Under the pieces are notes generated by a model. It saw only the letters and a program-made list of their open reading frames with translations, did not search any database and was not told the DNA's origin. A DNA stretch of 64,000 bases, taken from NCBI GenBank assembly GCA_973895155.1, contig OZ316891.1, forward strand, positions 22,835,884-22,899,883. The letters run 5' to 3'. Origin of the DNA: Marsupella aquatica (lineage: Eukaryota; Plantae; Marchantiophyta). The translations under genes and the position numbers were made by a program. Positions 5,429 to 64,000 of the stretch are shown in pieces. Within the stretch, counting starts at the first letter, position 1, and each line of letters starts with the position of its first letter.

Positions 5429-5671
5429 ATGTGGGCCCAACAAAGTGAATCTTATTCTAATTTAGATAAGGGTTAACTAACCCTACTACGCCAAACTAAG
5501 TAAAACCGAGAATTTGAGTCAATTCCTAACAATCTCCACTTTGACTCTAGTTTACATAATCTGCATAATCTCCAATTTGGCCCTAACATTAATCATATCC
5601 ACACAATATGTAAGGCTATCGATAGGATAACTTTGGTAAGCATGTCTATTGCACTCTCCTTTGAAGCCACC

Positions 5672-11740: not shown

Positions 11741-12277
11741 CTTCAAAGGATTTGTGATCAGGCCATTACCAGGGGCACGTCGACGCAAATCTCACCCTTA
11801 TCATAATTATGAGTGCTCCAAAATTCACTGGCTACGTGAACTAACTTCCCAAAGGGCCTTACTCTATCCCCATCATTTCTCTCTCAAAGTTAGGGAGCCC
11901 ATTGACTGGAGCAACCTGGTGGTCATTACAGAATTAGTCCGGTTAGGCAATCACCATCCATTAGCAGTAATTTTGTTAACTGAGGGAGGCAGGAGGATCA
12001 GTATCGAGTGAATCTGGCAGCGGGACTTGTAACAGGATACATAAATGGAGCAAGTGAATTTTTTCCTTATCCCTAATTCAGGATAGTTGTCCGTTGGCGC
12101 AGATTGGTGGCAGTCATCCGGTGATTGTCAAGGGAATTGAGCCCACTGAACCATCCATCTAGGGGCATTAGCAGCGAGAGAGAGAATTTGGTTATGGGAG
12201 GTGGAATTAGGTTCTAGCTGCAGCACACAGGAAGGGAGGGAGGGAGGGAGCAGCAGCAGCAGCCGTGAGCTGTGGAG

Positions 12278-38912: not shown

Positions 38913-39277
38913 TGTTAGGAATTGACTCTAGTTCCCGACATAGTTAGCTTGGCCTTACTAGGTTAGTTTTAACCCTAGAGATTGTTAGGAATTGACTCTA
39001 GTTCCCGACATAGTTAGCTTGGCCTTACTAGGGTTAGTTTTAACCCTAGATTACATTAGGATAAGATCTGCTTAGTTTAGGCCCACTCATCTTGGCCCCC
39101 TTGGGGGGTATAGGCTGGAGGGAGAGCACTCTCTCCCTCATTCTTCACATGTACTCTCATTTGCTATGGAGCCTTCAGGAGTTTCTCCACTCGGGGTGTC
39201 TCATCGGTGTAGCATCTGATTGAGTGTCTCTCATGTTTCCGCATTGTTGTCTAGTTCGGAGCCGACGGTTTCTTACA
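38913..39277 (+). repeat. Ty1/copia 5' LTR, same family as 5430-5531, with its first ~70 bp duplicated
   Basis: TGTTAGGAATTGACTC...TTACA, followed by AG and a PBS; aligns by eye with the reverse complement of 5430-5531. Confidence 0.88.
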
Positions 39278-39279
39278 AG

Positions 39280-39292
39280 TGGTATCAGAGCC
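39280..39292 (+). promoter_or_regulatory. Primer-binding site, tRNA-iMet
   Basis: TGGTATCAGAGCC two nucleotides after the LTR CA. Confidence 0.92.
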
Positions 39293-42200: not shown

Positions 42201-42753
42201 GCCCAGTCCACCCCACCCCACCCCACTCCTCCTAACGCCAGGCCCTTTGCTTCGCGCTTTCTCTTTCCCTTACTTCTTATTAGGGGGTCCTAAACAGCCA
42301 GGCCCTTTGTTTCGCTCTTGTTAGGGGTCCTTATAATTATCTCCTCTGTTCTATTTGCTTTTTCTTATGATGAGGTCCTTAGATATCTGCCCTTCAAACT
42401 AAAACATCACATATTGTGCCCTTCAACTTATAAAATCAATATCTCTAACTTGCAATTTCATGTAGCAAATATCACATAATTATATAGACCCCTTTAGGAG
42501 AAGTTGATAATTACTTATTTTTGTGGACTTCTAGAGTTTTTTTGGTTCCTTAGTAAGCCTTGTTGTTTCATGAATATATTACCAACATGACACATAGGTA
42601 CACCCCTCTTGGTAGAATCTTAGCTTATAGTAAGATGGCTCAGACTTTCTATTTGTTTATGTCCATGTCTAATTTGATATTCCATATGGAGCTGAACACA
42701 CATAGGTGAGTTCCACAGTGACAACCTATCAATCTTACTTATTGTTCTACATG

Positions 42754-43730
42754 TGTGGAAAGCCTTTTCTGAGGAAGTGTTCTAAAGGAGTATTCAATCT
42801 ACATTTTTCAAAACTTTTGAAACCTTTTAAGCGACAAATGAAGTTATTTAAAGAAGATGAAGGAGTTAAAGCTCTAAACCTCTTTCACATTGAAAGATCC
42901 TTTTTAATCGACAAATCATTTTCATCTGAAGAATCGTTCAGGCGTTTTAAGTGGGATTTTGATTCAACTTCTCTTAAACCGTTTTTCCTCTCCCTTTTTC
43001 CACCCGAGCTCATTAGATAGAATTTAGCTTAGCTAAACTAGTTTAGTCATCATTAAGAGTCTTAACTTAGGAAAGTAGTTGAGACTACTCACCTCTTCAA
43101 ATCTTAAATTGATAGTTAGTTAAGAAGTAGTTTACACACCTTTTCAGATCCCTTTGATCTGTGAGGGAGTATTACAATTGAACTCCTAGGCAAAATTGCC
43201 TAAACATTTTCTTTGGAAATGATTTGTGACCAATACAGGTCTTTTCCTCATGCCAGGTTGGGCTTAGGAGGAAGAATCGCAGAAATGAGAAAATGCACCA
43301 CCAAAATTTCATCGTTATTCATGATTTCCTCGTGTCTTTCTTGCAAATCTTGGAATGAATGAATACATTTTAAGAAAACATTTCTTTGGTTTTGTATGGA
43401 AGAATATGAACAAAACTCTGAAATCTAGAGTTTAGAGAATTGTAGTGAAATCCCTAATGTAAAACCGATCTCTGTTGAGTATAAGGAATTTAGGAATGGA
43501 ACGAAAATCAAACTTCTATTGAGAAAGAGTAATCATCTCAGAATTTCCATATTAGAACGATTGAGCATAAATATTTTGAGTGTTTATATAGTAGTTGTGT
43601 CAAGAAAGAGATTATTAAGATCTCAAAAACCTCAACACCATCATAAATTGATTTCCTTTATTCCCTATGGGAACGAATTCGAGTTTCTAAGACAAGTTTT
43701 ATACAAGTTTCATCTAAAACACTTACCACA
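42754..43730 (+). repeat. 5' LTR (977 bp)
   Basis: TGTGGAAAG...TTACCACA, nearly identical to 53052-54021. Confidence 0.96.
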
Positions 43731-43739
43731 TATGATTTT

Positions 43740-43757
43740 TGGCACCGCTGCCGGGGA
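43740..43757 (+). promoter_or_regulatory. PBS, Athila-type (tRNA-Asp-like)
   Basis: TGGCACCGCTGCCGGGGA nine nucleotides after the LTR, close to the Athila consensus TGGCGCCGTTGCCGGGGA. Confidence 0.85.
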
Positions 43758-44407
43758 ATAAACTAAGAGATCAATTTATGAAGACAGCGGATTGAAGTTT
43801 TGCCAAGAGATTGAAAATTGAAAAAAAATAAAAATTGAAGTTTAGAGACTACGCCAAAATTTTATAAACCGTTCGTGATGGAGGACGATTTGTGGATACC
43901 GCCCTTGGAGTTCAAGTTCGACGTACAACCATTCATCATCAAGAATGCACCCAAGATGTATGTCAAAAGGATGAGGAAGGTGCACCATCAAATCACCAAA
44001 GAGGAAACGAATACCAAGGTTCAGGAAACAGAACCGCCGACCATTGACGCCAAGAAAAAAATCGTCTTGACGAAATGAATTGATAGACGTATCAATTCAT
44101 CGGTAATTAAGATTGATGGGTATCATAGGTTGCAAATGTTTCTGATCTAAGATAGTATTTAAGGATTTGATGTTGTGCGGTAGCAGGAATCTGAATTCCA
44201 ACAACTTCAATTTAAATTGCTGAAGGAGCAACACAAATAAAAACGGTTACAAAATTTGGGGATTTTCAATTGCGCCAAATTAAAGTAACACTGTGGTTTG
44301 TAATTCGGGATCTATGGAGGAAGTCTGATACATATTTTTATTTTTATTTTTTAATGGAGTACGTTCCTGCATGAATAGTTAGAATTATGAAGTAGGGATG
44401 GATCTCC

Positions 44408-46888
44408 ATGAGTACAAACGGTACTAACCCCATAGAGAGAGAGATACGCTATCGAAATAGAGAAGAGAAGAAACGCCTTCAAGCCCAAGCACAACTTGCA
44501 GAGCAAAGGTCAATATCGGCCTCTATAGATCGAGGAAAAGCCCCTATCAACAGAGATAGTCCAGTTCCTTATGTTGATCTTACGAGATATGTACTAGGTG
44601 GTGCCATTGCTGACAAGGAAAGAACGAAGGATGATTTCAATCGCCAAGGAATAGCCGACTCAGAGATTCAGCCCGAATTTTCCACTGTAGCAGAAAAGGT
44701 GAGAAATTTAGAAGAATCAGGTACTATTGACATAGATGTTCTCGATAGTAGTCCTAGAGTAGTAATTAGTTTTGCGATTAGAAACATTTCTTTGCCTCCG
44801 ATTCCATTACGAATAGTCAATAGTCAATTTCTGCAACCCATCGTTAGATTACCTAGCACTTCGTCGTCTGTCATCATGACGACTTCCACAAGATTGAGAT
44901 ATACAGTTTTCAAAGGCAGAGGCCAAGATCCGGAGGATTGGCTGGGTGAATTTTTGTCGACTGCCAAAACTAATAAGGAGAACACCAAACCAGATCTTCT
45001 CCAAATTTTTGAAGGTTTGATGAAGAAAGAGGCCCATAAATGGTACACCTTATCTCTCACTCCTGCAATTCAAGGTAGTTGGCCGGACTTACAAACCGCT
45101 TTTCGGAAGGAATTTTGAGAAGCAGGAGCAACTTTGAGGGTACTTGCTCGGTTGAGGAGAATTTGCATGCGAAAGAAAGACACCCTAAGAACTTATTCCC
45201 AAGAGGTAAGGAAATTGATTTTGAAATTAAGACCTCTACCCAGTGATGACATGCAAACCGAATATTTTGTAGGAGGACTACCACGCGAAATGAATCGGTA
45301 TGTCAGACGAGCACACCCTGCCAACTTAGCAGCAGCGATTGAGGCTGCACAGGAACTTGAGGATACGGAGATGTCCCAGCGGAAAGAGCTCAAGAAAGAG
45401 GAAAAACGAGAGAAGGAACGAGAAAAACGGAAGCGAAAGAAGAAAAGATCCGGATCCAAAAAGAAGGACCTTACTTCTTCGTCCTCCTCATCCTCTTCCT
45501 CCTCAAGTCCTAGTTCAAGTTCCCCTTCACCCTCGTCCTCTTCATCATCAGAAGATGAATCCAGTAGTAATAGGAAAGATCGGAAGAAAATATATCATCC
45601 CACTAATAATGCATTGAAATCGCTTACAGGCGTGAAGAAAACGATCGATGATCTTAGTGGTAAATTTGACAAACTCTCGGTGAATTTGGCAGATAATCGC
45701 CCCAAGCGTAGACCACTGCCTGTGCAAAGACCAAATGTTTGGTGTGCTCGTTGTGGAGAACGAGGCCACTATCCAGTGGAGTGCCCACATATGGGGAGAC
45801 AAGTGCATTACATGGCAGAAGAATGGGATGACCAGGGTTGCTATGATGTGGAGCCTGAAGAGCTTGATTGGTACATGGTCAGTAGTCCTTCATTTCCAAG
45901 AAGACCCATGGCCCCATCAAGACAACCTATGGGTAGGGATATGGGGATGAATACGATGGCCCGATCAATGACCATAAGACCACCAGTCAAACCTCCCATG
46001 GATCCTCCTGGAGGCTACCCCCCTCGCACACAGAGGATCCCAGGAACTTGTTACAATTGTGGGATCGCTGGCCATTACGCTCCTGATTGTCCTTATCCTA
46101 AAGCACCGTATCAATATACCCCCATTTGTGGAAATTGTGGAAGTGAGGGACACTTACCCATTGAATGCCCAAAACCGGTTCAACCCAAACTAATGGTGAA
46201 ATATGTTAAAGATCCAGAGAAGAAGGACGATGCGGAGGTACGAATGATTTTCCTTGAAGATACTCACCAGGTGATGGAGAAGGAGTTGAGCGACGAGGAG
46301 GTTTCATCAGTCTATAGGACTACTACTCGAAGTGCCAAGCGAAAAGCTGAGGAGACAAATCACCAAAGCGATAGTTTAACCTCAAAACTCGCTTTCGGTC
46401 ATCAAGATGCCTCAACCACTTCACGCAAGATCAAGGATAAGGCCAAGATCAGTGATACACCGCTTGGGGGTAAGCAGGTAGAGGGCCTTCCCAAAGAGTT
46501 AGACCCTGCGTATGACAGGTACGACCCAAAGTATTTCATAAGAGATATATCGTCTGAAGCTAATGAATATATTAATCAAGAGATTAAAGCCAATGCACAA
46601 AATATTGCAGTGAAACCCAAGCATGTTTCCTTTGAGGATAAGCAAAATTTTCAGGGAGTTAGAGTAGATGAAAAAGTAGGCTATGACATAGTCAAGGATG
46701 TGGCTAATGCCCAAGCAACGGTCACTTTTGGAGAATTGTTGAGAAATAATGCTTTGTATCGAAAACAGTTAAAACCGCTTCTTAGTTCTAGGCGTAGGAA
46801 ATATAAAATGCCTCCGGTAGCAGTTAATTTTGCTGAAATAGAGGCTTTGGTGCTCCAGATGTTGAACTGCAAATCGATGGCTGTTTAG
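44408..46888 (+). pseudogene. gag (retrotransposon capsid plus three CCHC knuckles), in-frame TGA at 45116-45118
   Basis: FKGRGQDPEDWL...AHKWY...SWPDLQTAFRKEF*; knuckles CARCGERGHYPVEC, CYNCGIAGHYAPDC, CGNCGSEGHLPIEC. Confidence 0.9.
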
Positions 46889-49800
46889 TTAGAAGTGTCC
46901 CTATTGATGGTGGTTCAGGAGTTAATATTATGATAGCACAAACTGCACGTTCGTTAGGATTTACTAAGTATGAATCAACACCTAGAGTCCTTAGGATGGC
47001 AGATCAATCTAGAGTTTTTCCATTAGGGAAATTAGGAAATATTGAAGTTTTAATCGGAGGTTTACCTTTTATTTTGAATTTTCTTGTTATTGACCCTCCC
47101 ACTCAGTCAACTTTCCCTATTTTTTTAGGTCGCCCTTGGCTTTATAAAGCTAAAGTTAAAGTTAACTGGGCTAATAAAACATTCTCCTTCGGCTATCCCA
47201 AAGTCACGTTGTCATGGGATAAGATCCAACATTTGGGGGAAACTATGTCTTCAGACCCAGGTTATACGTCCGATGATAGTACCTCTACAGTTGATTCACG
47301 ATGGGTTGATGCGATGATGAAGCTCAAGGAGGACGAATTCAACTTTGAGGAGGACGTGCGCTACCTCGAAGTCTACACTTACGAAGATGCAGTGCCAGCT
47401 GAGCATGTCAGGAAAGTAGACGAAGTTGGTACTTCCTCAAGGTCTGAACTACTTGCCCCAAATCCTCAAGCGGTGTTACCTCCTAAAGTAATATTCAAAC
47501 CAAAACCGATCGTCGAGATGCCAGAATCGGATTTGGATGAATAGCAATCACAGAAACCTAAGGAAGGGGAAGTAGCCTTAGGAAAAAGCTCTGCATATTT
47601 TCAAGAATCTACTAACATGACTGAGGGTATGGTTAAAAAGAATCAATATGTTAAACTAGAATTAGAAAAGGATAAAATGTTTAACATAGGGAGAAATTTG
47701 GATGATGTTACCCAACAAGCATATAAGGATCTTTTATATGAATATAAAGATATTTTTGCCTGGAGTCATCATGATTTAAAAGGAATTTCTTCTACTTTAG
47801 GTGAACACCATATAGATTTAGTAGAGGGTGCTATACCCATTAGGCAACGTCAGTATAGACTAAATCCCAAGTATTCCCTCATGGTTAAAATGGAATTAGA
47901 TAAATTAAAAGAGGCTGGTTTTATTTACCCTGTCCTAAGTAGTGAATGGGTATCGCCTATAGTTATAGTTCCTAAAAAACCAGGACCGGATGGGAAAGTA
48001 AAAATTAGAGTATGTCAGGATTATAGGAAATTAAATGCGGCCACTAAAAAGGATTTTCATCCCTTGCCATTTACGGATACGATTCTAGATCAAGTGGCTG
48101 GTAAGGAATTGTATAGTTTTTTAGACGGGTTCTCAGGTTATAATCAGGTTTTCATTAGAAAATTGGATCAGTCTAAAACTACATTCACAACTGATTGGGG
48201 CACTTATGCATTTTCTCGCATGCCTTTTGGGTTGTGTAATGCCCCAACAACTTTTCAAAGGCTAATGACCGTTATTTTTCAGGATTACCTGCGTGATTTC
48301 TTGGAGATTTTTATTGACAATTTTTGTGTTTTCAGCAGTGAAAAGGACCATTTGGAGAAACTAAGGAAGACTTTTGCTAAGTGTCGTGAGGCTGGCTTGT
48401 GTTTGCACCCTGAAAAGTGTTTCTTTGGGATGATCGAGGGCATTTTATTGGGTCACAAAATTTCACAGAAGGGCATTGTTGTTGATCATGACAAAATTTC
48501 CGTCATCCTTGCCTTAGAAGTGCCCACTACCTTGCGGGAGTTAAGAGGGTTTTTGGGCTATGTCGGGTATTATAGACGATTTATTGAGGGATACTCCGTT
48601 CTCGCCACACCTCTTAATCAACTCCTTAAAAAGGAGGTGCCTTATGAGTGGAATGAGGCACGAGACAATGCCTTCCTCACCCTCAAACATACGTTGACTG
48701 TAGCTCCAGTTCTTCATGTTTTTGTGGATACCTCTAAGTTTTGCATAGGGATTGAGTTGAGTCAGAAAGATGAGCGTGAAAAGCACCACCCTATTTACTT
48801 TGCCAGTCGTCAACTCAATAGTGCCGAGCAAAATTATTCCACCACTGAACGTGAAGCTCTGGGCATTGTTTTTTCTTGTAAAAAATTCCGTCACTACCTC
48901 CTTGGTTATGACACTGTTTTTCATACTGATCATAACTCTCTTAAGTATCTTTTTAATAAGGCAGATTTGTCAGGCCGAATTGCATGTTGGATTCTACTTC
49001 TTCAAGAATTCCGATTTAAAGTGGAGGTGCGCCCTGGAAAAAGCCATGTCAATGCTGATTACTTATCTCGGTTGGAAGGAGAAGGTGATACCAAAGTGAT
49101 CCCCGATGTGTTTCCTGACGAGGAGTTATTTCACGTGGAGGGTGAACAATCGCTTTATGCTGAGATTGTTTCTTTTCTCATTACTGGTCGACCTCCTCAA
49201 CACATGAATGCGGAGCAGCAGGCAGTTTTTGTACATAAGGCGGGGCCTTACACCCTCATTAAAGGTGTGTTGCATAAAACTATGCCTGACCTTAAGCTTA
49301 AGCGATGTTTGGAGACGCATGAGGTGTCCCGAGTGATTAGTGCATTGCATGAAGGGAATTCGGGCGGACATTTTGCTGTGAACACAACGGTGGCCAAAGT
49401 TCGTGATGCGGGTTACTGGTGGCCCTCCATGCATAAGGATGTACTTGACTTCATTAAAGGGTGTGACCCTTGTCAACGCATGGGGAAACCTTTACTCAGT
49501 GGAAGGTGGCCCTTAGTTCCTATAATGCCTCTTGCTCCCTTTGAAAAATGGGGCATTGACTTTGTGGGTCCCATACAACCTGTTACCCAACGAAGGAGGA
49601 ATCGCTACATCATTGTGGCAACTGATTACGCCACCAAGTGGGTGGAAGCTGCAGCGGTACGGAAGGATGATGCAGCTGTTACAGCATTTTTTCTTTTTGA
49701 CAATATTATCACTCGCTATGGGTGTCCCTTAGAGTTGGTTAGTGATAGAGGCACTCACTTCCTAAATAGCACTATAGAGCTTCTCACCACCACTTACCTG

Positions 49801-50415
49801 ATCAAGCACCGAAAAACTACTCCCTATAACCCTAAGGCAAATGGTTTGACGGAGAGGGCTAATGGCATCATTTGTAAAATTCTCACAAAAATCGTTTCTG
49901 CACATAAAAGTGACTGGGACATGAAGTTAGCATCTGCACTATGGGCATATAGAACTGCCCAGAAAATCACCACAAAAAGAACTCCTTTTTACATGGTTTA
50001 TGGGATGGACTCTATTGTTCCTATAGAGTTCAGTTTGCCCACTGCACGAATTTTAGAAGATAGACGTTTACCCCCTGAAGAAAGCCAATTAATTAGATTA
50101 GCCGAATTAGAACATTTGGAGGAAAATCGTCTTTATGCACTCACCCATACTCATGTTCAGCAAGCACGTAGGAAGATGAATTATGATAAGAAGTTGAAGC
50201 CAACAACCATTAAGGAAGGAGATTTAGTTCTACTATATGATAATTGTTATTTGAAATTTCCAGGGAAGCTCCACACTAGGTGGGGGGGGGCCTATGTAGT
50301 TAAGAATGTTTGGCCTAATGGTAGTTTACAACTTACCACTACTGATGGCGAAGAGTTAATTACTAGAGTCAATGGCCATAGAGTAAAAAAATACATGGCT
50401 CAGCCATTGGAGTAG
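46840..50415 (+). pseudogene. pol (protease-RT-RNase H-integrase), disabled
   Basis: Protease IDGGSGVNI...LGRPWL lies out of frame with gag; TAG at 47542-47544; RT CQDYRKLN, LDGFSGYNQ, MPFGLCNAP, FIDNF; integrase GHF...WWP...CDPCQ, WGIDFVGP, SDRGTHF, NGLTER, KLHTRW. Confidence 0.93.
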
Positions 50416-50833
50416 GGTCGTGAGGTCACTTCCTTATTTAAGGAGGGGATGGCTGCATAGAGATTAGGTGACGATAGAAGTTAAGATAACCATTTTAGGT
50501 TAAATTTTTTATTTTTTTAGCTCTTTCAACAATATCCTTTTAGGGAAAGAGGAAAAATGATTAAGAGAAGGCTGAATTGCTTTTCAACTTTGAAACGGTT
50601 CGATTTGGCGGCAAGGGAGAAATACGTGTACTGAAGCACATACATAGAGGCTAAACGAATACTTCATACCGGCTATAACGAATCAGGCTTGAAAGAAGAT
50701 TGGCAAACGCAAGAAACAGAGGGTGAAGAGTAATTGGGCCTGAATATTGAGCGCGCGAGACAAACGGAGGCCAGGAGCAAGGTGAGCTACCGATGTAGTT
50801 GAGGCGCCCATTGGAAGCGAAGTTTGAGCAGCA

Positions 50834-52576
50834 ATGGTGAAGGAGAAGACGATCGTGATGCCTCCTGAATCTGAGATGTCCAGCAACCAAGAGAATTACA
50901 AGAAGGTGGGCATTGATTCGTTAGTTGACTTTCTCTGGGTGATCAATAATGTCAAGATGGTGGACAAGATACGCCTGCGGAATAAACGTGGGAAGAATGT
51001 GACTGCCCGATCGGATTATACAGCGATTACTGAGCAGACGATGGCGGATTGCTATGGCGTTTCTTTGGTAGGTCTGATTGCAGAAGATTTCACCTCCTCC
51101 CGACTGTTCCATGACATTTGCGAGGACCAATTCTCTGTTGAGTTTGCAAAGGAAGGCTATACACCAAACTCAGCAAAGGATCCAGCACTTTGAGCAATCC
51201 TCCGCTTCATTGTACCGATCTTGACACCCGATAAGCCCAAACGTATTGCAGGCAAGTTAGCTGCCATGATTGTCACCGCCTACGTTAAAGGTAAACCAAT
51301 CAATTGGGCTTGCGTGCTTTTAGATTTGTTTCAGCTGAGGTGCAAGAAAGTGAAGGACGGAATCAATTTGTTTGTGGCGCCCATGTTGTTTCATTTGTAC
51401 AAGTTCGAGAAGAAGCTTTCGATAGTAGAGTTACAGTTTTATGAAGAAGCAGAGGCAAACAGAGCCCTTATTGAAGACCCATCCTCCAAAGATGAAGACA
51501 GTGAGACAGACGAGGATGACGTTGTCAAGATGCCTGTCAAAACTGAGGTTCAGGCATCCCCTATGCGAGTGTTGAGGGGTCGACCACGAGGTTCAACATC
51601 GACCAAGAAACCTCAAGAAGTTTCTGTGATTCAGATAAATTTGGATGATCCTTTGTGTCCCTTGGAAAAACGACTGCGCAGCACTGTGGATGATTTCTGC
51701 CGAGTTAATTCTGTCAATGCTAGTCTGATTAATCAACTACACGCCAAGTTTTCTTGTTCAGGAGATGCTTTATTTGCTAAGATCGAAGACTTACACTCCT
51801 CTTCTACACGAATCGATCAAGAAAGGAAACAGTGGAGAGTGGAGAAACGTGAGCTTGAGAAACGATTGAAGGAGTCGCTCCATGGCTCAGTTTTACCAGC
51901 AATTCAGCAATCGGTTCAGACCCTCTCCACTGCCGCGACTGGAATGGCCCTCTCTGTTACTGAGACTCTTCAGCTTGCTGCACTAACGTCTGAAGGATGG
52001 AAAAACGACAGCAAGAATTTGACAAAAATTGCCTCGGCAATTACCAACCAGAAGAATTTGTTGGACAAGAAGTATGAATCAATTCTGAAATTGATTGGAG
52101 ATTTGCAAAAGTATACTAAAAATCATTTGGAATCCTGTCCAGCCCTTACACCTGACCAGGGAACTTCAGCCGACCTACCAGAAGGAGTAACTCATGGCTC
52201 GAAGGAGGACAAATCAACTGCCATTGCTTCTGGTGAGAAGGATGCTGATCAAAAATTGAGTGTGGGTCCAACCCTAATCACAACAACAGAGGATCTTGCT
52301 TCCCACGCAGTTTCTACCGATCAACGCCAGGCAATTTCTGCAATTGAGGCCACTTGTCTTCTAGTTCCTACCCCTAAACAGCAGTCACCAGTTTCTAATG
52401 TTTATGACAATTTTTCCAACACTGCCCTATTACAATCCATGATTGCTCCCACCACAGATTTAGCAGCACAGACTGATTTACAGGTGGAAGTTGAAGTAGT
52501 TGAATCAGACACTGAGTCTGAAGCAGTGACTCAGACTCGACTTCCAAAGAAGAAGAAATTGAAGCGAAAATACTAG
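50834..52576 (+). pseudogene. Athila-type ORF3 (extra/env-like ORF, coiled coil), in-frame TGA at 51191-51193
   Basis: ORFs 50834-51193 and 51221-52576 are in one frame; KPINWACVLLD...APMLFHLY motif, acidic linker and coiled coil; located between pol and the 3' LTR. Confidence 0.8.
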
Positions 52577-53051
52577 GAGACAGCTTTCAAGTTTTCAGTG
52601 CAGTTAGTGGAAGTATGAGCATTTTCCTTGGATGTATTGCTCTTCTAGTACAGTGATGAAGCGATCTCATTTTGATATTGAAGTATTTTGATGGAGACTT
52701 TCTTCCAGTTTATCACTTCTCTGTACACTGTTGGAGATTTCTTTGATACAGATTTTACCTTTCTTCAATGTCAATTTTATTCCATGTGTTTCTTTCCATT
52801 ACATTTTTCACCCTGAGTTTATTCAAACCTGAAAAGACTCATTGAATCACATCCAAGTTAACTTTTTCTTCACAAGTCAAACCAAGCTCAAGTTCAGACC
52901 TGAAGTCCTCACGTTCAATCTGTTTACTATTTATTTCTTTGAGTAAGAAATGTTATTATGTTTAGCAAGTTTCACCTGAAGCATTTTTTCTGAGAAGAAT
53001 GTTTGAAGACTTACTGTTCGCGGGGTCGCTTCACATTTAAGGAGGGGATTA

Positions 53052-54021
53052 TGTGGAAAGCCTTTTCTGAGGAAGTGTTCTAAAGGAGTATTCAATCTAC
53101 ATTTTTCAAAACTTTTGAAACCTTTTAAGCGACAAATGAAGTTATTTAAAGAAGATGAAGGAGTTAAAGCTCTAAACCTCTTTCACATTGAAAGATCCTT
53201 TTTAATCGACAAATCATTTTCATCTGAAGAATCGTTCAGGCGTTTTAAGTGGGATTTTGATTCAACTTCTCTTAAACCGTTTTTCCTCTCCCTTTTTCCA
53301 CCCGAGCTCATTAGATAGAATTTAGCTTAGCTAAACTAGTTTAGTCATCATTAAGAGTCTTAACTTAGGAAAGTAGTTGAGACTACTCACCTCTTCAAAT
53401 CTTAAATTGATAGTTAGTTAAGAAGTAGTTTACACACCTTTTCAGATCCCTTTGATCTGTGAGGGAGTATTACAATTGAACTCCCAGGCAAAATTGCCTA
53501 AACATTTTCTTTGGAAATGATTTGTGACCAATACAGGTCTTTTCCTCATGCCAGGTTGGGCTTAGGAGGAAGAATCGCAGAAATGAGAAAATGCACCACC
53601 AAAATTTCATCGTTATTCATGATTTCCTCGTGTCTTTCTTGCAAATCTTGGAATGAATGAATACATTTTAAGAAAACATTTCTTTGGTTTTGTATGGAAG
53701 AATATGAACAAAAATCTAGAGTTTAGAGAATTGTAGTGAAATCCCTAATGTAAAACCGATCTCTGTTGAGTATAAGGAATTTAGGAATGGAACGAAAATC
53801 AAACTTCTATTGAGAAAGAGCAATCATCTCAGAATTTCCATATTAGAACGATTGAGCATAAATATTTTGAGTGTTTATATAGTAGTTGTGTCAAGAAAGA
53901 GATTATTAAGATCTCAAAAACCTCAACACCATCATAAATTGATTTCCTTTATTCCCTATGGGAACGAATTCGAGTTTCTAAGACAAGTTTTATACAAGTT
54001 TCATCTAAAACACTTACCACA
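53052..54021 (+). repeat. 3' LTR (970 bp), preceded by PPT AAGGAGGGGA (53039-53048)
   Basis: Direct repeat of 42754-43730. Confidence 0.96.
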
Positions 54022-54029
54022 ACATGCAG

Positions 54030-54414
54030 CAATATGGACCACAAGCGAGGTGTCCATGTGAGCATGACTGACCTCAATGATGGGACATACAAACTGAGCT
54101 GGAGGGAGCTCAATGCTCCTTCCCATGCCCCTCTCATCCAACGCACCACTACAATAGCAGAGATTCAGTCTGACTTCCCTGAGTGGTGCAATGTTATCAA
54201 ATTCTATCGTATTGCACTAAACTCTACTGCTCCCTTGGAGGACCTTTGGATTTGTGCCGCATACAATTATTGTGAGACATTGATGTGTCGGAAGAGGTTC
54301 CAAGTATCTATTCACTTGGCTTTCATTTGTGGATCAACTAGTAGACATATGCTACCCCGCCCCGTGAAAGATGTCATACTTGCTACTTGGCCCAATGAGG
54401 AAGAAGAGGAATGA
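54030..54414 (+). CDS. KolX/P2X7-C-terminal-like ORF, unit 1 (possible first exon at 42686-42705, separated by the Athila insertion)
   Basis: ...CAAYNYC...RKRFQVSIHLAFICGSTSRHMLPRPVKDVILATWP; similar to units 2 and 3. Confidence 0.6.
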
Positions 54415-54655
54415 TAGGATAGGAACCATAATCCTTCCAGATATTTTGTTACTCAAAGTTCTATTTTACGAGTATGATATTGGTTTTTTCATTCCTATGT
54501 TCCAGATTTCATGGCTAAATCATCAATGAGTATTGCAGAATGATGGAGCATGTAAGTCATGCCTTTTGTATTTGACTATATAGAGACAAGTCCACATGAA
54601 AATTTGGCTTTATGCCTATTGCCTAATATGCATGACTCTAGTTTTCTTTGCATAT

Positions 54656-55040
54656 ATGGAAGGTAGACATAGCCAAGTCATCACTCTAGAGTCCCTTCAT
54701 GGTGACACATATGTTGTGTCTTGGCTCAAACATCCAATGGACACTATTGGACAACGTCAATTTTCCATGGGTGAAATTGAAACATACTTTCCTGAATTTT
54801 GCACTGTTGTGCAAGACTGCCTTCACCTCCTCAACCCCGTTATATCTGTTGAGGAGTACTTACGCATGGCCGCTTATAGTTGGTGTGCAACCAAACCACA
54901 CCAGAAAAGATCATTAGTACACAGTTATGTGGCTCGAGCTTGTCATTTGGATGCAAGAGGAAGGCTCCTAGATATGTTGGAAGAGGCTATATGGAACACT
55001 TGGCAGTCGAGGAAGAAGCTTTGTTTGGTTTCACTCCTAG
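54656..55040 (+). pseudogene. KolX-like unit 2, frameshifted near its C-terminus
   Basis: ...FPEFC...LNP...MAAYSWC...KRSLVHSYVARACHLDARGRLLDMLEEAIWNTW, then EEEALFGF in a shifted frame. Confidence 0.55.
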
Positions 55041-55165
55041 ACCCTTATAGGTCCATCATTGCACAAATAATATTCCTAGCTCTTCTCAATGTAACCTCAA
55101 TTGACATACATCTAAATTGTTGTGCACTTGTATAAATGGCATTTTTTTGTCTTATGTTTTGTAGA

Positions 55166-55558
55166 ATCGCCAATAAGACGCCAAGGAGCACTGCCACATT
55201 GACGGTGATGGATCCTGACCTTGAGACAAATCGGTTGAGGTGGATGGATGGGTCTACTCAATGTGAGGAGGTTGTGAGCTTGCTAGAGGTTGAGTGGGAT
55301 CAGCCATTATTGTTCAAAGCAATCGCTGAATGTCACCAGTTGTTGAACCCTGCTATGCCACTCCAAGACCTGCAAATGTGTGCTGCTTATAGCTTCACCA
55401 AAACTGTCAACAAGAAAAAATGGTTTCAAGTGTACACCCATTTGGCTTGGGTGTGTGGGTTTGCAGAGAGAACACGATTACCTCCAACTGTGGAGGAAGC
55501 CATCAAGGAGGCTTGGCATGATGAGGATGAAGTGTTTGTGGGCTTCAGTGAAAACTAA
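55166..55558 (+). CDS. KolX-like unit 3
   Basis: ...LLNPAMPLQDLQMCAAYSF...KKWFQVYTHLAWVCGFAERTRLPPTVEEAIKEAWHDEDEVFVGF*, preceded by a TTTGTAG acceptor. Confidence 0.6.
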   Translation: MANKTPRSTATLTVMDPDLETNRLRWMDGSTQCEEVVSLLEVEWDQPLLFKAIAECHQLLNPAMPLQDLQMCAAYSFTKTVNKKKWFQVYTHLAWVCGFAERTRLPPTVEEAIKEAWHDEDEVFVGFSEN

Positions 55559-56532
55559 ATGTGGCTACACATCCCCCATGGATCCCTAAGGCTGTTGATT
55601 TTATATTGTGGGAATAATAAATAGCATGACCAAAGTATAGAACCAAGAAGGCAAGCCTTTACCAATATTTTGCATACACTCATATAAACATATAAATAAA
55701 TAAATAAATTCTCCTGTTGGAGAAGAACTCTTGCTGGCCGGCAGCAGAAGGGGTTCAAGTCCCCTTGAGAGTGGATACAAAGGTTAAAACTAGTGGGTTA
55801 AAATCATCCCCTAAGGTAAAAACATTATCAAGTAAAAACATTATTAGCCCAATGAAAATGTTCTTCCCCCAATGAAAATGGTACACCATAATCCTAGACA
55901 CAATACACTGATCATATATACAGAGACAACTTTCAAGTCTAAAATACCAAAAGAAAACCATAGAAAGAGACCAAATGAGTATTGCACATAGAGTACGTCA
56001 ATAGAGTAAAAGTTTCAACAATTGACCAAACACTTGGGTGTGACTACCTTTCCTATACCACCAAATGAAAATAAATCCCTGCAACAAAATGGCCATATGC
56101 CCTAGATAAGACAAAATATTCTCCAAATACTTTAGCAAATGAATGGACATATTAAAATGCAATGAAAGTGTAAGTGTGACGCCGCCGGTACGGCGGTTAA
56201 TGAGTGATTCAGTCTAACTGCGCTCGGCACGCGCGTTAGGTGGGTCTTAGGCCGCTATTATTAGCATAACGACAGTATTTAGGTAATCATTAGGGGTAGG
56301 ACATCATTAGGCAATAAGGGGGACTTCAGGTTCGGGCTGGCAGCGGGTCGCTATTCGCACACCCGGGTTACGAGCATGGAGGGGCCCCTCCCTCGGGTCC
56401 GTATAACGAACTTAAGGAAGCGGCCACTGACGCACGCTGACTCAGACCGGCGGAGTGGCCGGTACACCACAAGCGTGAGCGGTTCAACCTATGGGCGTCG
56501 AGGAGACGTCGGGGATCGACAAGCCCTCAAAG

Positions 56533-56539
56533 TATAAAA
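56533..56539 (+). promoter_or_regulatory. TATA box ~100 bp upstream of the LTR-borne ORF
   Basis: TATAAAAGGGG followed by a CT-rich leader, as in LTR promoters. Confidence 0.65.
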
Positions 56540-56640
56540 GGGGAGCCAACCCTTTGTAGTGCACCAGTCCATCAGTCCGCGCGCCAGCTTCGACCCCAGC
56601 TCTCTCGTTCTCTCTAGGTCGCCACTACTATCTCCTCTGA

Positions 56641-59283
56641 ATGTCGCACACGATCCTCTCCAGCTCGGCCATTCGATTCTAGACGCAGTTCCTATCTACC
56701 GGAAGGCACTTGGCCGATTCATTGAAACACGCCAACCCGCGCCGATACGAGATCGAACGCGAATACGAGAGAGCCATCCGCCTAGCAGGACGACACCACT
56801 ACGTCCTTAACTTTGACTACCCGTCTCAGAGCGAGCTTTACCGACCAGCTGAGGTATCTGGGTACTTCTTTGACGGAGACAAATATATCGGGTTCTGGGA
56901 AGCATTGCTTTGGCTTCCGGACGAGGTCTTCAATATCCCGGGTACAATCGACCTGCAGCGACATCACTTCGACCACATCCCTGCCCAGGTTCGGGCAGTC
57001 ATTAACGGCGAGTCCAGTACCAACTGTTCGACAAGGGCGTCCGCACTCACTTCGGAGAACTTCTACCAGCACCTACAGAGCTTCATGGGAACTCGGCCAT
57101 CAACCAACATGACCAACTCAGCCGGACCCGTACCCGTACCCGTACCCGTGCCCATGCAACCTCAGCTTCAGCTTCAGCCTCAGCCGCAGCCTAGCCAAAC
57201 CCCACCACCTATCACCCAGCCAGCACAGGTACGCTCCGTCATCAACGCTGTGGATCTTAGCGATGACGACGAGGCTACCCCACCCTTGACCAGGCGGCCC
57301 AGAGGAACAAGCGCTCGGGGGGCCGACACTATATCGTCCCCACCCCTTGCTCTGACCCCAGGAGCGGCCCCAGCAGACAACATGGTGACCGTGGCCGCCC
57401 CGGGCCTGTTACCAACCGCAGTGGCACTCCCCAGGCCCGATCGGGAGGATGGGGAAGTATCACCTTCCCCGAGTCAGTCACGGGGAAAGAAGAGGAAGGA
57501 ATCCGCCAGTGCATCCGGGTTACCGTTGGCCACGGTAGCCGTAGCCAAGGTAACGATGCATCGCATGGGGGAAAACGTTCACAGCAACATCCTCCATCCC
57601 AAGCATGCGGTGTACCTGAAGACTCAGGGATTTGAGCACCTCGCCTCTCTCCCCTGGAACACTTGCAGGTACTACGGGGAGGACATGACAGAATTCGTCA
57701 AGAATTATGATGACGTACGTCAACAGACTCGGCTGCGGGGAAGGAATATGTCCCTCACAGAAGAACGGCTCAAGATGATCTTCGGGTTACCCGAAGGTGA
57801 CCATCAAGTCGAATCACGGGCTCCCGGGGGCAAGGGGGCCAAGTACCAATCTTCAAGTTTTCCCTCAGAGGGATCAGTAGACAACGGGTTCGTGATGAGG
57901 ACCTGCCTCATGCCCGAGATAGCTGAGCGGCTGGAGTTCCAGAGGTACGCTCTCCACATGATGGAACCCCGGGGGGAGATCTCCGCCGCCCAGGTCATCC
58001 AGGTCGAGAACTATCGACCTAGGAAATGGGCGTCGTACTTCGCTAAGAAATTCCATGAAGAGATGGAGCGGCGAAGGAAGACGCTATACATTGGCGGGAA
58101 GGCGTATTTCGCTAGCCATATCGAAATCATTCTTGAGTGGTACGCCCGGTTTGATCGACGAACCCTTCCTCGCATCAACGTTACAAAGCTGGTCCCAGCT
58201 AGGTGGGTTTTTCCGGCATTGGAGAGACGGCCCCAACTCGAGGCCCGAAGTCCAGTGGACACGCCAGCTTCACCCACCCCACCTCCACAAATAGCTGTAA
58301 TCGTAACCGAGGAGGCGCCGGAGGGGTCGGTCGTCGCAACCGTTGATGCGACCCAACTAGCCGGGCTAAGTACAGAAGTTGGTACGGCAGAGGTCTTACC
58401 CGAACCCGGGTCTCCCAAGGACCCGCCGGTGGCAATTCCGGAGAACCGGACATCGCTGCAGGAGGATACTCCAGCCCCTTCCAACGTTATGTCCCCAGGG
58501 CTGGACGTCACTGCCCCGGCCCCTGCGCGTGTTGATGTCTGCCCGTGCCCAAATCCGGACAGGCACAACTTGGACCACCCGGAACTCTTCGTACAGGGTA
58601 CGTTTCTGAACGGGCTTCTGGGAGATTTCTCTCATCAAATTGCCCGGGATACCGGGGAGTTCATGGCCCGGAAGGTAGCCTGTTTCTTCAATCAGGAGTT
58701 GGTTGCCGCCGTAAAGGCAGGGCGGGCCCAGTCGGAGGCCCTTCAGAGGATAGAGCGGTACCGGGTGGAGTCCGTGTACCTAAAGAACGAAGTGGAGGCT
58801 CAAGAGGCTGAGCTTCTGCAACTACGACCCAAGGTTGCAGCCGCCGATGAGTTGTTAGCAAAGGCGTACGCTCTTACCGCCCTAGCCGAACAGGCCAAAG
58901 CTGGGAACGAGGCCGAGATTACACGACTCCGGAACCAGATTGACAGTTTGAAGAAACAAGCTGTCACCTGGCAGAAAGACCTGGAGGAGGCCAAGGAGCG
59001 AGCCCAGCGGGACGCGACGGAGATAGCCACGCTGCAGGCCGAGATGGCGCGGCTCCAAACCGAGGCCGAGAAGCAGGACCAGCTGGCGAGTAAACTGGCG
59101 AGCGACGCCCAGCAGCTGGAGGAGGCATGTCAGGAGGCAGCAGAGGAGACGGACGCGGCGAGGCGAGAGAACGAATCTCTGCTGGACCAGGTCCAGCTCC
59201 TCAAAGCGGACAATGACAGGCTTCGAAGGCAGCGGGATGGCCGTTCCCATTCGGGCGGCTCTGGCAAGCGTGCCAGGCATTAG
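56641..59283 (+). CDS. ~880-aa protein of unknown function: N-terminal domain, P/Q-rich linker, putative plant-transposon-protein-like core, C-terminal coiled coil; one premature TAG at codon 14 (56680-56682)
   Basis: ATG 56641 gives MSHTILSSSAIRF*TQFL, where copy A has MSNTILSSSALRFWMQFL (TGG>TAG). The frame is then open to 59283. Core: EFVKNY...RLRGRNMSLTEERLKMIFGLP...KWASYF. Confidence 0.85.
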
Positions 59284-60240
59284 CGGCGGAGTAGGAATAG
59301 ATTAGGATTAGGATTGGCTTAGTCAGGCTCTTGGGACAGGCACCTGCCTTAGGTACGGCAGCGCTGCCCTGCTGTCCAGCCTGCGTAGATTAGGATCTTC
59401 TAATAAGACACAGCCGTTTTCCGGCCTGACTGTCAGCTTAGTTAGGACCTTGGTCAGCGAATCTTCGGCGGGAGGACACCCCGTTCCTCGGCTCTTAGTA
59501 TTTAGTGCACCCCTCGATAGAGGGGGGGGGTTTTAGTTTCAGAGTCGGACATCCGTGGGACATGCGGGGAGTCCCGACCTCTGGGAATGACAGAGTACCA
59601 AGGGGAGGGGGTAGGACTAAGCTTGCCGGGCGAGTGCGGAGCCGGGCTCCGTTGTAGTGTGCACCCTTGGCCTTGAACCTGTGCATTCCAGGGCTGTCGT
59701 GTCAACTAAGTGTACGCATATGTTCCCTTTGTAGTAAAATCCTTTCCCATCATTTTTCCTTCGTGTAAATCGAGATTGTATGCATGTGTGCGCATATGTG
59801 TGTGGGTTTCTCGTATATGGGTGGCAGCGCCAGGCCGAACGCACTACCCGAGACGTGCACAGGGTGTAGCCTGCGGGTAAGTGGTTGCGAGCACGGGTTG
59901 AGGACCTGTATCATCGAATCCGGATCGAAGGCGGACAGCACGAAGGCTTAGAAGCCCTTAAGCCGGGGTTGATCCTGCTATCGACTAAGGTACGTTTCGG
60001 CGGCGGAACACAAACCATACCTAGGAGGTGTCCGTATTTAGCAGTATGCGCACTTAGCGCTAGTTTACGAGAATAAGGTGCATTACGTGCTTCCCTTCCT
60101 GCCCGAACCCTCAGATTTACGAGGGATGTGCCCGTCTAAGCTGAAGTCTGAGTTAAGGCCGAAGCCTACGACGTGACAGTAAGTAATACCATAATTCAAC
60201 TATCAGATACACACCTGACTGAACATCCCTGGATCATAGT

Positions 60241-63200
60241 TTAGGTGCCTCCATACATGCGTTGACTAATTGCATCTTTCCAGTTAGTGGTCCTCTCCAC
60301 CAACAGTCTACTACGAGCTGGCCTATCTCTCACAACAGTATTACCGGAATACGAGGAACTATCTTCCATACAGGGCGGCCAATGTTCTCATTCCAATCCA
60401 TGAATGCACACATCAAACGAGCCTCATGAGATGCTGGAAAGTGAATGCATTTTGTGGCAAAATTTCCCATCACTGAATGAAATGTCTCGGATAAGAAGTT
60501 CTCTCTAGCCATGGTGTACCATTGCATCTTTCCTGGAGTGATGTACTTTGCCATGAATCCCTTCATGGCAACATGGGTTGCTGAGTCTGCCCCAAACACC
60601 AAAATATTTTAACAGTGTAACTAATGATAAACAAACCACAATAGCATTGAAATGTAGATGTCCTCAACTTGAGAACTAACCTCTTGCATAATACAAATCC
60701 AATTGGGTTCCTTCTTCTTCTCCAATATGGTGGCAGGGCCGGTCCGGTAGTGTCAAACACACTATGTGTATACCAGCCCAGTGATTTGCACAATTGGCTA
60801 TCTCAAATGCTAGTGATTCAGCATCACCCCCTCTGCATAAGAAGAAAATCACCATTAATAAATTTGTACAGTTGTGAAAAGGACAAAACATTTCAGTGTG
60901 AAAGTCATATTTTTTTCAATGTAGTAAAATACTTACGATGTTTTGCACCTCCTGCAACAAATATAGAACCAAGTCTTGAACTTCATGGACATGTTGTGCT
61001 GACTAAGCTCTGGATACTTTAGTCCACGGGAAATGATCGGCATCAATGTGTCCTCAATTGGTAGTCCCCTCCAATCTCCCACCTTGTGGACGAGGTCAAT
61101 TTTCCTGAACTTAGATAACCCTCTTACCCCTTTTGCCTTCAACCAATCTTACATCTGCTTGACAGTAGCACTTTGCAATTGTGACCTACACAATCATCCC
61201 AAGCATTTAGTGGAAGCTAAAAGTGCATACAAAATTGTACACTCAGTTCAAATTATAAAATTGAAACTAAGAAGACTTACAAACACTAACCTGGTTGTTG
61301 CAGTATCAATGTCCACTGTCAAGGTAAATGTGCACTTCACCAACTTGTCCACAAATTTCCTGACAAGATTTTTGGCTTGTACCACAAATCTTTTTGATTC
61401 ATCAACCCTAGGTCTCGAAGGATAGCATCCACAGCAGAGTTATCATCATGGATGACCTGAAAATTACAAGATAGTGCCAAGGTAATTAGCACTAAACTAT
61501 GTATTTTACTGACAAAGGAAAACAACAACAAAATAAAGGAAAACAATAAAGACATTATGAATTTGATAAAGTAGAACACTAACCTCTTTGATTACAATTC
61601 CATTGTCTCTCAATCTTTCCAAACCTTTTCTGGTCCCTAGTTCCTCCATCAACCATGAATTGGGTTCCTCTTTTTTGGTCGTAGTCACCATTTCTATAAC
61701 CTTACTATCCACAAGGTTGATAATTGAAACAGTACCATGATAACCACTACGCGAGGAGTCCCATCGAGCATCTAAGTACACGACAAGACCAGGATCTGTC
61801 CAAAACCCCAACATGCCAGTATCAATAAATAGATAAGTATTTGTAAAGCACAACAAATTAAACAGGAAGCTAATTATGCTCAAGAGACAAACAATAACAC
61901 AATGAGAGTTAGTACTTACCAGCTTGAAGGTCAACCCCACACTGGATATCATGTCTCAAATTTTGCCACAACTCTTTTTTGTTTTCCTCCCATTGTTGAT
62001 TGACAGCTTTAATCCAACCAACCCCGGGACGCCCTCGACCTGTCTGAAAGTCATACCAATGCTGCGATGTAGGGACATGCAAACCTAGGTGTGATGCAAC
62101 AGATGACAGTGATGTATATGTGAGCCCGACACATAATGTAGAGTGATACAACTTGGTGGTAACCAAAGGTGAACCCCTTCTTGACTCCATCTCTCCAGTA
62201 AGAAAAGTCCAACCATGTCCCTCCAGCCCACAACTAATCCGTATAGACCACAACTGTTGTAACTCCCTCACATGATGTACTGTAGGGGTCAAAGGGCATC
62301 CGGATATATGACATCTAGGTAGTAGTTGCTCCACAAAAGTATGCACCAAATGGCGCTCTATGAAACCAACTGTGGCAGGCTCACGGGGTCGGAATCTTGT
62401 TTTTGGAACCTCTTCATGAGCCTCACAATGTTTCACATGACTAGGAGGGATCTGAGAGTCCATCACTACAAGAGGAGGGATTTGAGAATCCATGACCTCA
62501 ACTTGAGAAAGTTGGGAGTCCGTCACGTCAACAGGCACCACTTGAGAATCCATTACCGCCGAGGGAAGCGACTATGAATCCTCAATGCAAGTTGTTTGAG
62601 TCTGGTACATGACCAATATATAACACATAACAGACTAAGTATGCTTGCAAACTTTTCCTGTAAAAAATATTAAAATATAAAAGTTGTAAGTTAAAATACC
62701 ATAAAGTTACATTACATACCTGGCCCCCTAGAGCAGCCACCACATCTGGATCATCATTTCCAAAGATGATGTCATCGTCACCAAAAGATCCCTGGATAAT
62801 GTCCTCAGGCCATTCATTGTAAGCCTCAAATACTCTCCCACTCTGGTGCATTCCCTATGGATTAGATACAAGAGTTGGTGGTCAAGGAAAAACAAAAATT
62901 CATGAAATGGACAAACAATAACATTGAAGACTCAGGATAGATTAGAGAATATAGATAAAAAACACTACCAACTTAAAATGCTGATGTATGGTGAAAGAAA
63001 GGACAGAGGAAAAAGTAAACTTGGGAAAGAAGTGTGAGTGAGAATGGGAAAGAAATGTGAGTGAGAATGAAAAAAATAAAGGAGGCATTAGACCTGAGAC
63101 TGGTCAAAATCCATGGGTCCCCTCTCATGTCGTGAGTGTTGTTCCTCGTCCAAAGACTCCTGGTGATGTTTGACTTGAAAAAGTTAGTACATTAAATTGT

Positions 63201-63672
63201 GAAAACTGAAATTGCAAGATTAGATAAAACCAGCAAGTTATACAATGAAATAGAATAGGAAAGAACCTCTTACATGGAGGGAGTTGTTGGCCGGGACTGA
63301 ATTGAGATCGAACATGTGTTCTTCAGGTACACCAAGGGGTTCTTCATTCTCCACCCCAAGTGGCAATGCCTCACTTGCAAGTGTTGCTGCCTGGACCACT
63401 TGCCGTCTCTTCAACTCGTGTATCGCAGCACTGCACTTGTCAAGTAACCAATGAATGACTGTAGCATGGGTGGTATTCAAGTCATCTCCCAATAAAAGTC
63501 TAAGTTCCTCCCACTCATCCCATCGCTCCACTGGGACCCGGATTGGTGGCTTGGCATGCGGTCTCATCCTCTTCCTATACTCCATGTCATCACTCAGGTA
63601 CTTTGGTCTTGAAGGACCACCGCCCCGGGGAGGACGTTTACGCCGCCTACTAGGAAGGTCAGTCGGCTCCAT
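60241..63672 (-). pseudogene. Intron-containing Kolobok-like DDE transposase, about nine exons, with frameshifts and stops
   Basis: YLDARWDSSRSGYHGTVSII...SWLMEELG...L...GIVIKEV|IHDD...QKDLW(Y/H)K...LSETFHSVMGNFATKCIHFPASHEARLMCAFMDWNENIGR matches the Kolobok D-D-E pattern (DGRxDS / TD / DxWH / ExFHS...AR..LA..DxNxN.xR). Ends ...QRMYGGT* after a frameshift. Confidence 0.78.
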
Positions 63673-63695
63673 CCTAGACACTGTGTCAGCCAAAG

Positions 63696-63985
63696 TACTA
63701 AAAAAACTAATGTATTATCTAGATAAAAATTGCAAAACCACTAAAAATTGCAAAAACCACAAAAAGAGTGTACTAAAAAAAACTAATGTATTACCTAGAT
63801 AAAAATTGCAAAATTACTAAAAATTGCAAAAACCACAAAAATAGTGTACTAAAAAAAACTAATGTATTACCTAGATAAAAATTGCAAAATTACTAAAAAT
63901 TGCAAAAACACAAAAAAGTGCACTACGAAAAACTAATGTATTACCTAGACAAAAATTGCAAAACCACTAAAAATTGCAAAACCAA
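63696..63985. repeat. ~75-bp AT-rich tandem repeat, about four copies, upstream of the transposase
   Basis: GTACTAAAAAAACTAATGTATTACCTAGATAAAAATTGCAAAA... starts at 63696, 63770, 63846 and 63920. Confidence 0.9.
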
Positions 63986-64000
63986 AGGAAAGAAGGACCG

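Follow-up and report, generated by a model that had tools for sequence, protein, structure and literature searches.

A decayed and likely Kolobok-type DNA transposon in the liverwort Marsupella aquatica

We have analysed a 64,000-nucleotide stretch of the genome of the liverwort Marsupella aquatica (contig OZ316891.1 of assembly GCA_973895155.1, positions 22,835,884 to 22,899,883 of the forward strand), hereafter the window, which holds a DNA transposon with a spliced transposase gene and three small genes that converge on it. The element belongs to a multicopy family, and the copy in the window has decayed. We consider it quite likely that it is a cut-and-paste transposon of the Kolobok type, from a liverwort and charophyte lineage that is likely older than land plants, and that the small genes are KolX-derived helpers which have lost their zinc cluster and been triplicated.

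The transposase gene and its assignment to Kolobok

The transposase gene, of the DDE type, occupies 60241..63672 on the minus strand and was delimited from motifs, homologues and contigs. It consists of nine exons (63672-63267, 63173-63094, 62854-62720, 62571-61920, 61816-61584, 61456-61291, 61185-60937, 60832-60681 and 60586-60241); seven of the eight introns are GT-AG introns of 93-239 nt, and intron 4 ends in TG. A single open frame runs through exons 1-5 and the beginning of exon 6. The gene has three lesions, a 1-nt frameshift near 61376, a TAA stop at 61151 and, near 60342, another frameshift; with X placed at each of them the product measures 806 amino acids. The catalytic residues are D440 in YLDARWDS (codon 61772-61770), D506 in IHDD (61447-61445) and E725 in LSETFHS (60488-60486). 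The DxxH motif corresponds to residues 525-528, where the window copy reads Tyr (DLWY, continued as DLWYK) in place of His; an inner zinc finger is formed by H658, H663, C666 and C674, and the tail ARL..A..DWNEN.GR is also present. A preliminary description made from the letters of the window had proposed a spliced minus-strand transposase with these motifs, and all those that it quoted lie at the minus-strand places it gave.

Logan contigs of two organisms (four runs) were aligned to 60100-64000 for a comparison of copies. Diverged copies match the exons at about 82-91%, and introns 4, 5 and 6 differ in both letters and length. Accordingly, the exon model is supported by the contigs, as the diverged copies match exons and vary in length inside introns. 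The contigs show a frame-keeping state at both frameshifts, CAA in place of the stop and, in all four runs, the His codon CAC at 61381 for the Tyr of DLWY. Because the lesions occur here and frame-keeping states occur in contigs, the window element is one decayed member of several; this copy is most likely inactive, and other copies keep open frames. The 61376 frameshift is missing from every aligned contig of one organism (A) and may be peculiar to the window copy or come from a slip of the assembly at a short A run; the main contig of one sequencing run (X1) retains both the TAA and the frameshift near 60342. Among 40 listed of the 627 contig differences, 33 were coding and 16 of these were silent, a modest sign of selection.

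Several features of the 5' part of the gene accompany this structure. A strand-helix-helix segment at 63430..63560 (minus strand), aligned by eye, is common to Riccia P0007, to P0008 and to P0014, and the predicted model of P0008 has helices at 26-39 and 45-77 in this part. The segment has no match in a Pfam scan; from the model it may be a DNA-binding domain. In exon 4, a 30-bp tandem repeat (62423-62557) encodes VMDSQ-type repeats of a disordered linker. In the first exon, contig depth peaks about tenfold at 63499-63636 in four of four runs, a depth that does not equal copy number, and loose contig ends occur at 63499-63506 and 63595; the peak perhaps reflects internally deleted derivatives that retain this part. 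Just upstream of the ATG lie about four tandem repeats of 76 bp (63686..63985).

The assignment to Kolobok is carried by homologues of the protein. A search with exon 9 returned four proteins, two from Calypogeia fissa (73-74% identity) and two from Riccia sorocarpa (61-64%). The Riccia protein P0003 aligns with the window protein at 41% identity over 489 columns (E 3e-106), and when searched against 1.84 billion proteins it matched 296 of them at E<=1e-3, including the scallop protein P0121 at E 2.2e-13. By eye, P0121 agrees with the Kol0-type rows of the alignment of Kojima and Bao, and 27 of its first 42 core columns are those of Kolobok_1_PiPr. An earlier profile comparison (probability 100, E 5e-51) was partly circular, P0121 being one of its 73 rows. 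Therefore, the test was repeated with a 30-row profile without animal sequences, which gave E 6e-29 for P0121, 2e-32 for one protein similar to it and 5e-39 for another.

A column-by-column alignment with Kol0-type proteins places D440, the E that follows S-x-x-M/I/L, D506, DxxH, the zinc-finger H/C residues, E725 and the tail in register, and C666 is retained in nearly all aligned rows that have letters there. The protein thus has the DDE core pattern of Kolobok, C/DxxH placed between its second D and its E, and the inner zinc finger. According to section 10 of PMC9587614, a paper used here in part only, a finger at this place is typical of Kolobok except Kolobok1, and MuDR, P and hAT lack it. 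On these grounds we uphold the Kolobok-type transposase of the preliminary description.

Comparison with described systems, as given in the parts of PMC9587614 consulted, shows where the element belongs. On the one hand, it resembles the Kol0 lineage, whose type is Kolobok-1_XT, in a DDE core with a DGRxD/DARxD first motif, D-x-x-H and a zinc finger before the E, in the tail 'E.FHS...YA.KR..F...AR..A..DWN.N', in a small second gene type ending in a ballast motif, and in its spliced genes. On the other hand, the element has a SAP-type insertion of about 70 amino acids after DxxH, streptophyte hosts, three tandem small genes instead of one, and no seven-cysteine zinc cluster. Kolobok_1_MicRcc299 of Micromonas and Kolobok-1_CCri of Chondrus are likewise Kolobok transposases in Archaeplastida, but the alignment rows and descriptions set them apart, with DGSW/DGAW as first motif where DARWD stands here, and Kolobok-1_CCri carries a RecQ helicase. 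The accessories of KolobokP, E, D and H (His-Me nuclease, lambda-exonuclease, DEDDh, RecQ) were not found in Pfam scans of the open reading frames (ORFs) of the window and of 44 homologues, part of the element lying outside the window.

The small convergent genes

The three small genes lie on the plus strand. Small gene 1 has its second exon at 54030..54414, which stops just before the final aromatic-x-G; its predicted first exon (42635..42705, from the ATG to AG|GT), placed from splice signals, joins 54030 in frame once an inserted Ty3/Gypsy element is skipped, and diverged copies of this stretch are present in contigs. Small gene 2 (54656..55050) has a frameshift ahead of its last motif, and small gene 3 (55165..55558) has an intact frame and ends in a ballast/KolX-like motif at 55478-55546. 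The three products (ORF1, ORF2 and ORF3) align as paralogues with 24-31% identity. The splice acceptor of ORF3 lies about 115 nt past the stop of ORF2, a gap so short that the three may be alternative last exons instead of genes with their own promoters.

We consider that the small genes probably descend from KolX, judging from their sequences. In the portions of the two sources available to us, the second gene of Kol0 is similar to residues 476-595 of P2X7 (PMC9587614), seven conserved cysteines bind two zinc ions in the KolX/ballast domain (PMC9587614, PMC7016195), and the last ballast motif reads (L/I/V)PSC(C/S)x3IRx2(F/Y)Px5Y(S/T)G (Rump et al., PMC7016195). ORF3 matches this third motif without a gap at eight of ten relaxed positions, at the extreme C-terminus, and this is the highest score anywhere in the window's six frames; in 60 shuffled windows the mean per window was 0.0 at score 8 and 0.2 at score 7. 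The ending R..LP..V...I...W......F.GF, which had been attributed to the small frames in general, is complete in ORF3, but ORF2 has it only across its frameshift and ORF1 stops short of it. Homologues found are two Calypogeia proteins; P0164 of Calypogeia fissa, with 53% identity (E 5e-26), retains LPxCV...IK..W including the cysteine. Cysteine-poor KolX proteins are on record beside piggyBac transposases (piggyBac-2_GrCh, piggyBac-14_PI; PMC9587614 Data S6, seen in part), and by eye they end in the same pattern as ORF3. Unlike the window ORFs, they sit beside piggyBac transposases and have an N-terminal C-x2-4-PC; the window ORFs instead have an N-terminal part modelled as a hairpin plus helix.

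A possible though unlikely alternative is that the transposase is of the Kolobok type and the small genes are unrelated to KolX, being a liverwort-specific accessory or captured gene with a chance ending. Several results count in its favour and against descent from KolX. The relaxed residue classes were chosen after ORF3 had been viewed, guided by the piggyBac KolX rows, and ORF3 matches only 4 of the 12 residues specified by the strict published motif. The two other motifs of the zinc domain are missing from the small ORFs, namely motif 1 (PxWCxCx2C, sought as PxWCxC) and motif 2 (LCCR..., sought as LCC). P2RX7_C had no match in Pfam, and PDB sequence searches returned no P2X7 chain. The N-terminal two thirds of the protein, modelled as a hairpin and helices, resemble nothing. 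Homologues come from Calypogeia only: ORF3 alone found none among 13 candidates, the three-ORF profile found one among 113, and the small ORFs matched none of the 163 proteins collected in this analysis. The ORF3 model, built from three sequences (pLDDT, the predicted local distance difference test score, 73.7), has no Foldseek match at E<=0.001; the best Z scores were 4.9 and 4.5 with no P2X7 listed, an absence that speaks neither way for a two-helix stretch of 55 residues. The search for P2RX7_C that the preliminary description had proposed was negative in Pfam and in PDB sequences, and the fold searches yielded no match to P2X7. Against a chance ending stand the gap-free match itself, not reached in the 60 shuffles, the same ending in ORF2 across the frameshift, the convergent position beside a Kol0-like transposase, and the cysteine-poor KolX of piggyBac elements.

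Descent from KolX is thus preferred in a reduced form. In the parts of PMC7016195 consulted, the P2X7 cytoplasmic ballast/ZCD proteins, with Nanor, share with ORF3 the spacing of motif 3, but motifs 1 and 2 and the arginines that bind guanosine diphosphate are not retained, a K standing in the column equivalent to R578. The label KolX-like used in the preliminary description holds for the last ballast motif with its exact spacing, and fails for the two zinc-cysteine motifs. Since one invariant cysteine, and not seven, is found in the four aligned small proteins, we do not file the element under the Kol0 lineage.

The SAP insertion and the origin of the lineage

Between DxxH and the zinc finger, the insertion of the transposase contains a SAP-type helix-extension-helix module. 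The window segment (61060..61185, minus strand), placed by alignment only, contains the TAA lesion. The SAP domain is found by Pfam in many homologues (best E 5e-9), and a profile of the insertion (A2) matches SAP domains in PDB, best 2rno at E 8e-4. The distance from DxxH to the next helix is 107-134 amino acids in the rows shown for liverworts, Chara, P0008 and P0014 and 357 in Closterium, whereas it is 40 in three Kol0-type (animal) rows, which have no insertion. By sequence, the common insertion joins the streptophyte proteins in one lineage. Both this insertion and the paralogy of the three ORFs had been missed in the preliminary description.

Host labels were given to 29 of the 150 listed matches of P0003, hand-picked for length. 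Eight are from Riccia, one is from Calypogeia, 11 are from Chara braunii, five from Closterium, one is from the scallop Argopecten and one (P0014) from marine protist transcriptomes, and two are unnamed. In a tree of 32 rows and 361 columns, from which P0001 and P0002 were excluded (core <200 amino acids) and in which three Kol0-type rows served as outgroup, the window stands beside Calypogeia (87/85), a placement that points to a leafy liverwort as its most likely source, the liverwort rows group together (89/93), and Chara (100/99) and Closterium (100/100) each form one clade. The lineage is probably old and vertically inherited. Ancient inheritance and transfer had both been offered as origins, and the former fits better than transfer from animals: the insertion is common to Calypogeia, Riccia, Chara and Closterium and is not in the animal proteins, which disfavours both a recent animal transfer and contamination.

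Some observations weigh against the reading as a whole. The tree differs from the host tree, in that Closterium is deepest, below Chara, and P0014 adjoins the liverwort rows (95/90); therefore, paralogy or transfer is needed. The branching is explained most simply by old paralogy with loss, and early transfer from or to an alga is the rival of this reading. The outgroup rows were labelled by eye and include no MULE, hAT or P rows, and the host range given is provisional, being drawn from 29 of the 150 listed matches. Neither transposon ends nor a target duplication were seen, the right end lying past base 64000 and the left end not being resolved in the window. The linkage of small genes and transposase was observed in one copy only.

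It is unlikely that the liverworts acquired these elements horizontally from an alga or protist, marine or freshwater, instead of inheriting them from the charophyte ancestor. P0014 is nearer to the liverwort rows than are Chara or Closterium, and no moss, hornwort or vascular plant is among the labelled matches, as such a transfer would have it. However, identity between Riccia and the Calypogeia-like window protein is no more than about 41-45%, and several deep sub-lineages exist within Riccia by itself, which would put any transfer before the liverwort classes split; the SAP-type insertion also occurs in Chara and Closterium, and the host of P0014 is uncertain. This 891-amino-acid protein is filed under both Pyramimonas and Prorocentrum transcriptomes, by cross-contamination or transfer, and the origin question turns on which of the two it is. 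Of the pattern matches to loci of relatives none was confirmed, neither those in metagenome contigs (two sets, of 41 and 104) nor those in viral contigs (44).

It is very improbable that the transposase is a divergent MULE-, hAT- or P-related enzyme, or a member of a new superfamily, rather than Kolobok. PF20700 ('Mutator-like transposase') gives weak matches in some Chara and animal rows, P0121 among them (best E 3e-7; one of 44 homologues above the cut-off), and P0121 matches MULE at 0.003. The predicted model of the intact homologue P0008 (pLDDT 81.6) has the P element, ISCth4 and Hermes as its top fold matches (E 2e-4 to 1e-3), none prominent. These matches are expected because all belong to the C/DxxH group, and there is no Kolobok structure among them to compete. 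The P element, Hermes (hAT) and ISCth4 (IS256/Mutator; PDB 6p5a, 8edg and 6xg8) appear, from the model, to share the RNase H fold and a helical insertion, but identity is 10-12%, the TM-score about 0.2-0.3, and the inner zinc finger, part of a core colinear throughout with Kol0-type proteins, is missing there according to the consulted text of PMC9587614. The Pfam comparison that had been called for found no MULE, hAT or PIF match in the scanned window exons or the liverwort homologues (MULE, hAT dimerisation and DDE_Tnp_4), and no transposase family at all in the liverwort proteins.

It is scarcely conceivable that the element is contaminating DNA of an animal, fungus or protist, or that it is a host gene present in single copy and domesticated: Kolobok records do lie mostly outside plants (PMC9587614, in part), but the nearest proteins are those of Calypogeia fissa and of chromosome-scale Riccia sorocarpa records, the window also holds nested retroelements and spliced host genes, and several diverged copies exist of which this one has a stop and frameshifts. 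The claim that this is a real plant lineage is borne out by relatives that occur in the assemblies of two distant liverworts as well as in Chara and Closterium.

In the text of PMC9587614 consulted, Kolobok hosts are animals, fungi, protists, a chlorophyte and rhodophytes, and neither Chara nor Marchantia is named in its supplements. The preliminary description, which called these elements best known from animals, fungi and protists, had missed the records from a chlorophyte and a rhodophyte; land plants are not among the hosts described in the papers searched. No Kolobok description from bryophytes was found in the literature searched, Repbase and subscription journals, where a liverwort or Chara entry is possible, lying outside it; the Riccia sorocarpa genome paper does not mention Kolobok. 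Kolobok appears a single time in a spinach paper, in a set of 67 minor elements from automated annotation and with no detail, and in a survey of 1007 green-lineage genomes, seen in part, Kolobok was among 17 superfamilies screened and active clusters came from seven others only (PMC12973397). The streptophyte variant is apparently undescribed. The liverwort proteins match no Pfam transposase family, and so they can be overlooked and filed as 'SAP domain-containing protein'.

Plant catalogues of DNA transposons hold few superfamilies, and a streptophyte Kolobok alters the history of this one to an old presence followed by loss or decay in most land plants. Among DDE enzymes, a SAP module in the core is a new arrangement of domains, and a role of the zinc-free P2X7-ballast relative in transposition is testable in Marchantia or Riccia. 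We would give even chances to a wider proposal, namely an unrecognised streptophyte Kolobok lineage that predates plant life on land, persists in both liverworts and charophytes and escapes plant surveys based on Pfam, with a SAP module in its catalytic core and a triplicated zinc-free relative of the P2X7 ballast. Plants would thus hold a natural minimal ballast fold and possibly their own TTAA-specific vector.

Enzymes of the hAT, P and MULE groups carry a helical insertion domain at the place that matches the SAP insertion. In the proposed mechanism, the N-terminal helical domain of the spliced transposase would bind the element ends, the inserted SAP module would provide a further hold on AT-rich DNA close to the active site, and D440, D506 and E725 would cut and join the DNA. 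Elements of the Kolobok type move by cut and paste and duplicate TTAA (PMC9587614, consulted part), and insertion here would duplicate TTAA as in the other families. By way of the helical part of the ballast fold, and without zinc, the small proteins might either help the transposase or restrain it.

Extent of the element, nested insertions and the rest of the window

Two nested elements had been recognised beforehand; both are real, and each has a 5-bp duplication. The first is a Ty3/Gypsy long terminal repeat (LTR) retrotransposon at 42754..54021 (plus strand), not part of the DNA transposon, with LTRs at 42754-43730 and 53052-54021 that are 99.1% alike and a target duplication ACATG. This young element has its primer-binding site TGGCACCGCTGCCGGGGA directly after the 5' LTR and two extra ORFs past pol (50828-51193 and 51194-52576) with no Pfam match. 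The second is a 4004-bp TG...CA insertion in the transposase 3' region (56175..60178, plus strand; duplication GTAAG), which stands between the transposase and the small genes. It has one 866-amino-acid ORF with coiled-coil Pfam matches only, no reverse transcriptase was found in it, and 5-8 contigs per run have loose ends at 60178; it looks like a solo LTR that bears its own long ORF. An inverted sister copy with 75% identity lies at 35380-38910, its end very deep in contigs.

The preliminary description had placed the element at 54030..63985, which is too small. The Ty3 element lies inside the predicted intron of ORF1; therefore, the transposon extends left to at least 42635, and its visible part without the two insertions measures about 6.7 kb. 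A repeated non-coding stretch at 42050..42634, left of small gene 1, is covered by variant contigs over 42050-42190 and 42273-42461 and is probably still inside the element, which probably extends left beyond 42050. Over 42050-42748 the contigs have no shared loose end, variants occurring throughout; no inverted repeat pair was found between 42 kb and 64 kb; and none of the six TTAA sites in 39290-42750 precedes sequence that resembles the right end of the window. The motif GGTCCTT at 41959, 42286, 42326, 42374 and 63994 is suggestive only. A decayed minus-strand frame at 41284-42070, divergent from the small genes and in three pieces without Pfam match, may be a further transposon gene, because the adjoining 42050-42190 has variant contig copies.

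The window also contains two spliced host genes, one RelA/SpoT-like (HD_4) at 12269-19231 on the plus strand and one ChaC-like at 23132-25258 on the minus strand. An element resembling a miniature inverted-repeat transposable element at 5673-7089 and 7590-7820 has inverted ends of about 300 bp that are 86% alike, with a partial third end, and its flanks are not TTAA. An LTR-like stretch at 38913-39300, related to 5423-5536, contains a 70-bp tandem duplication, and a Met-tRNA primer site, TGGTATCAGAGC, comes directly after the stretch.

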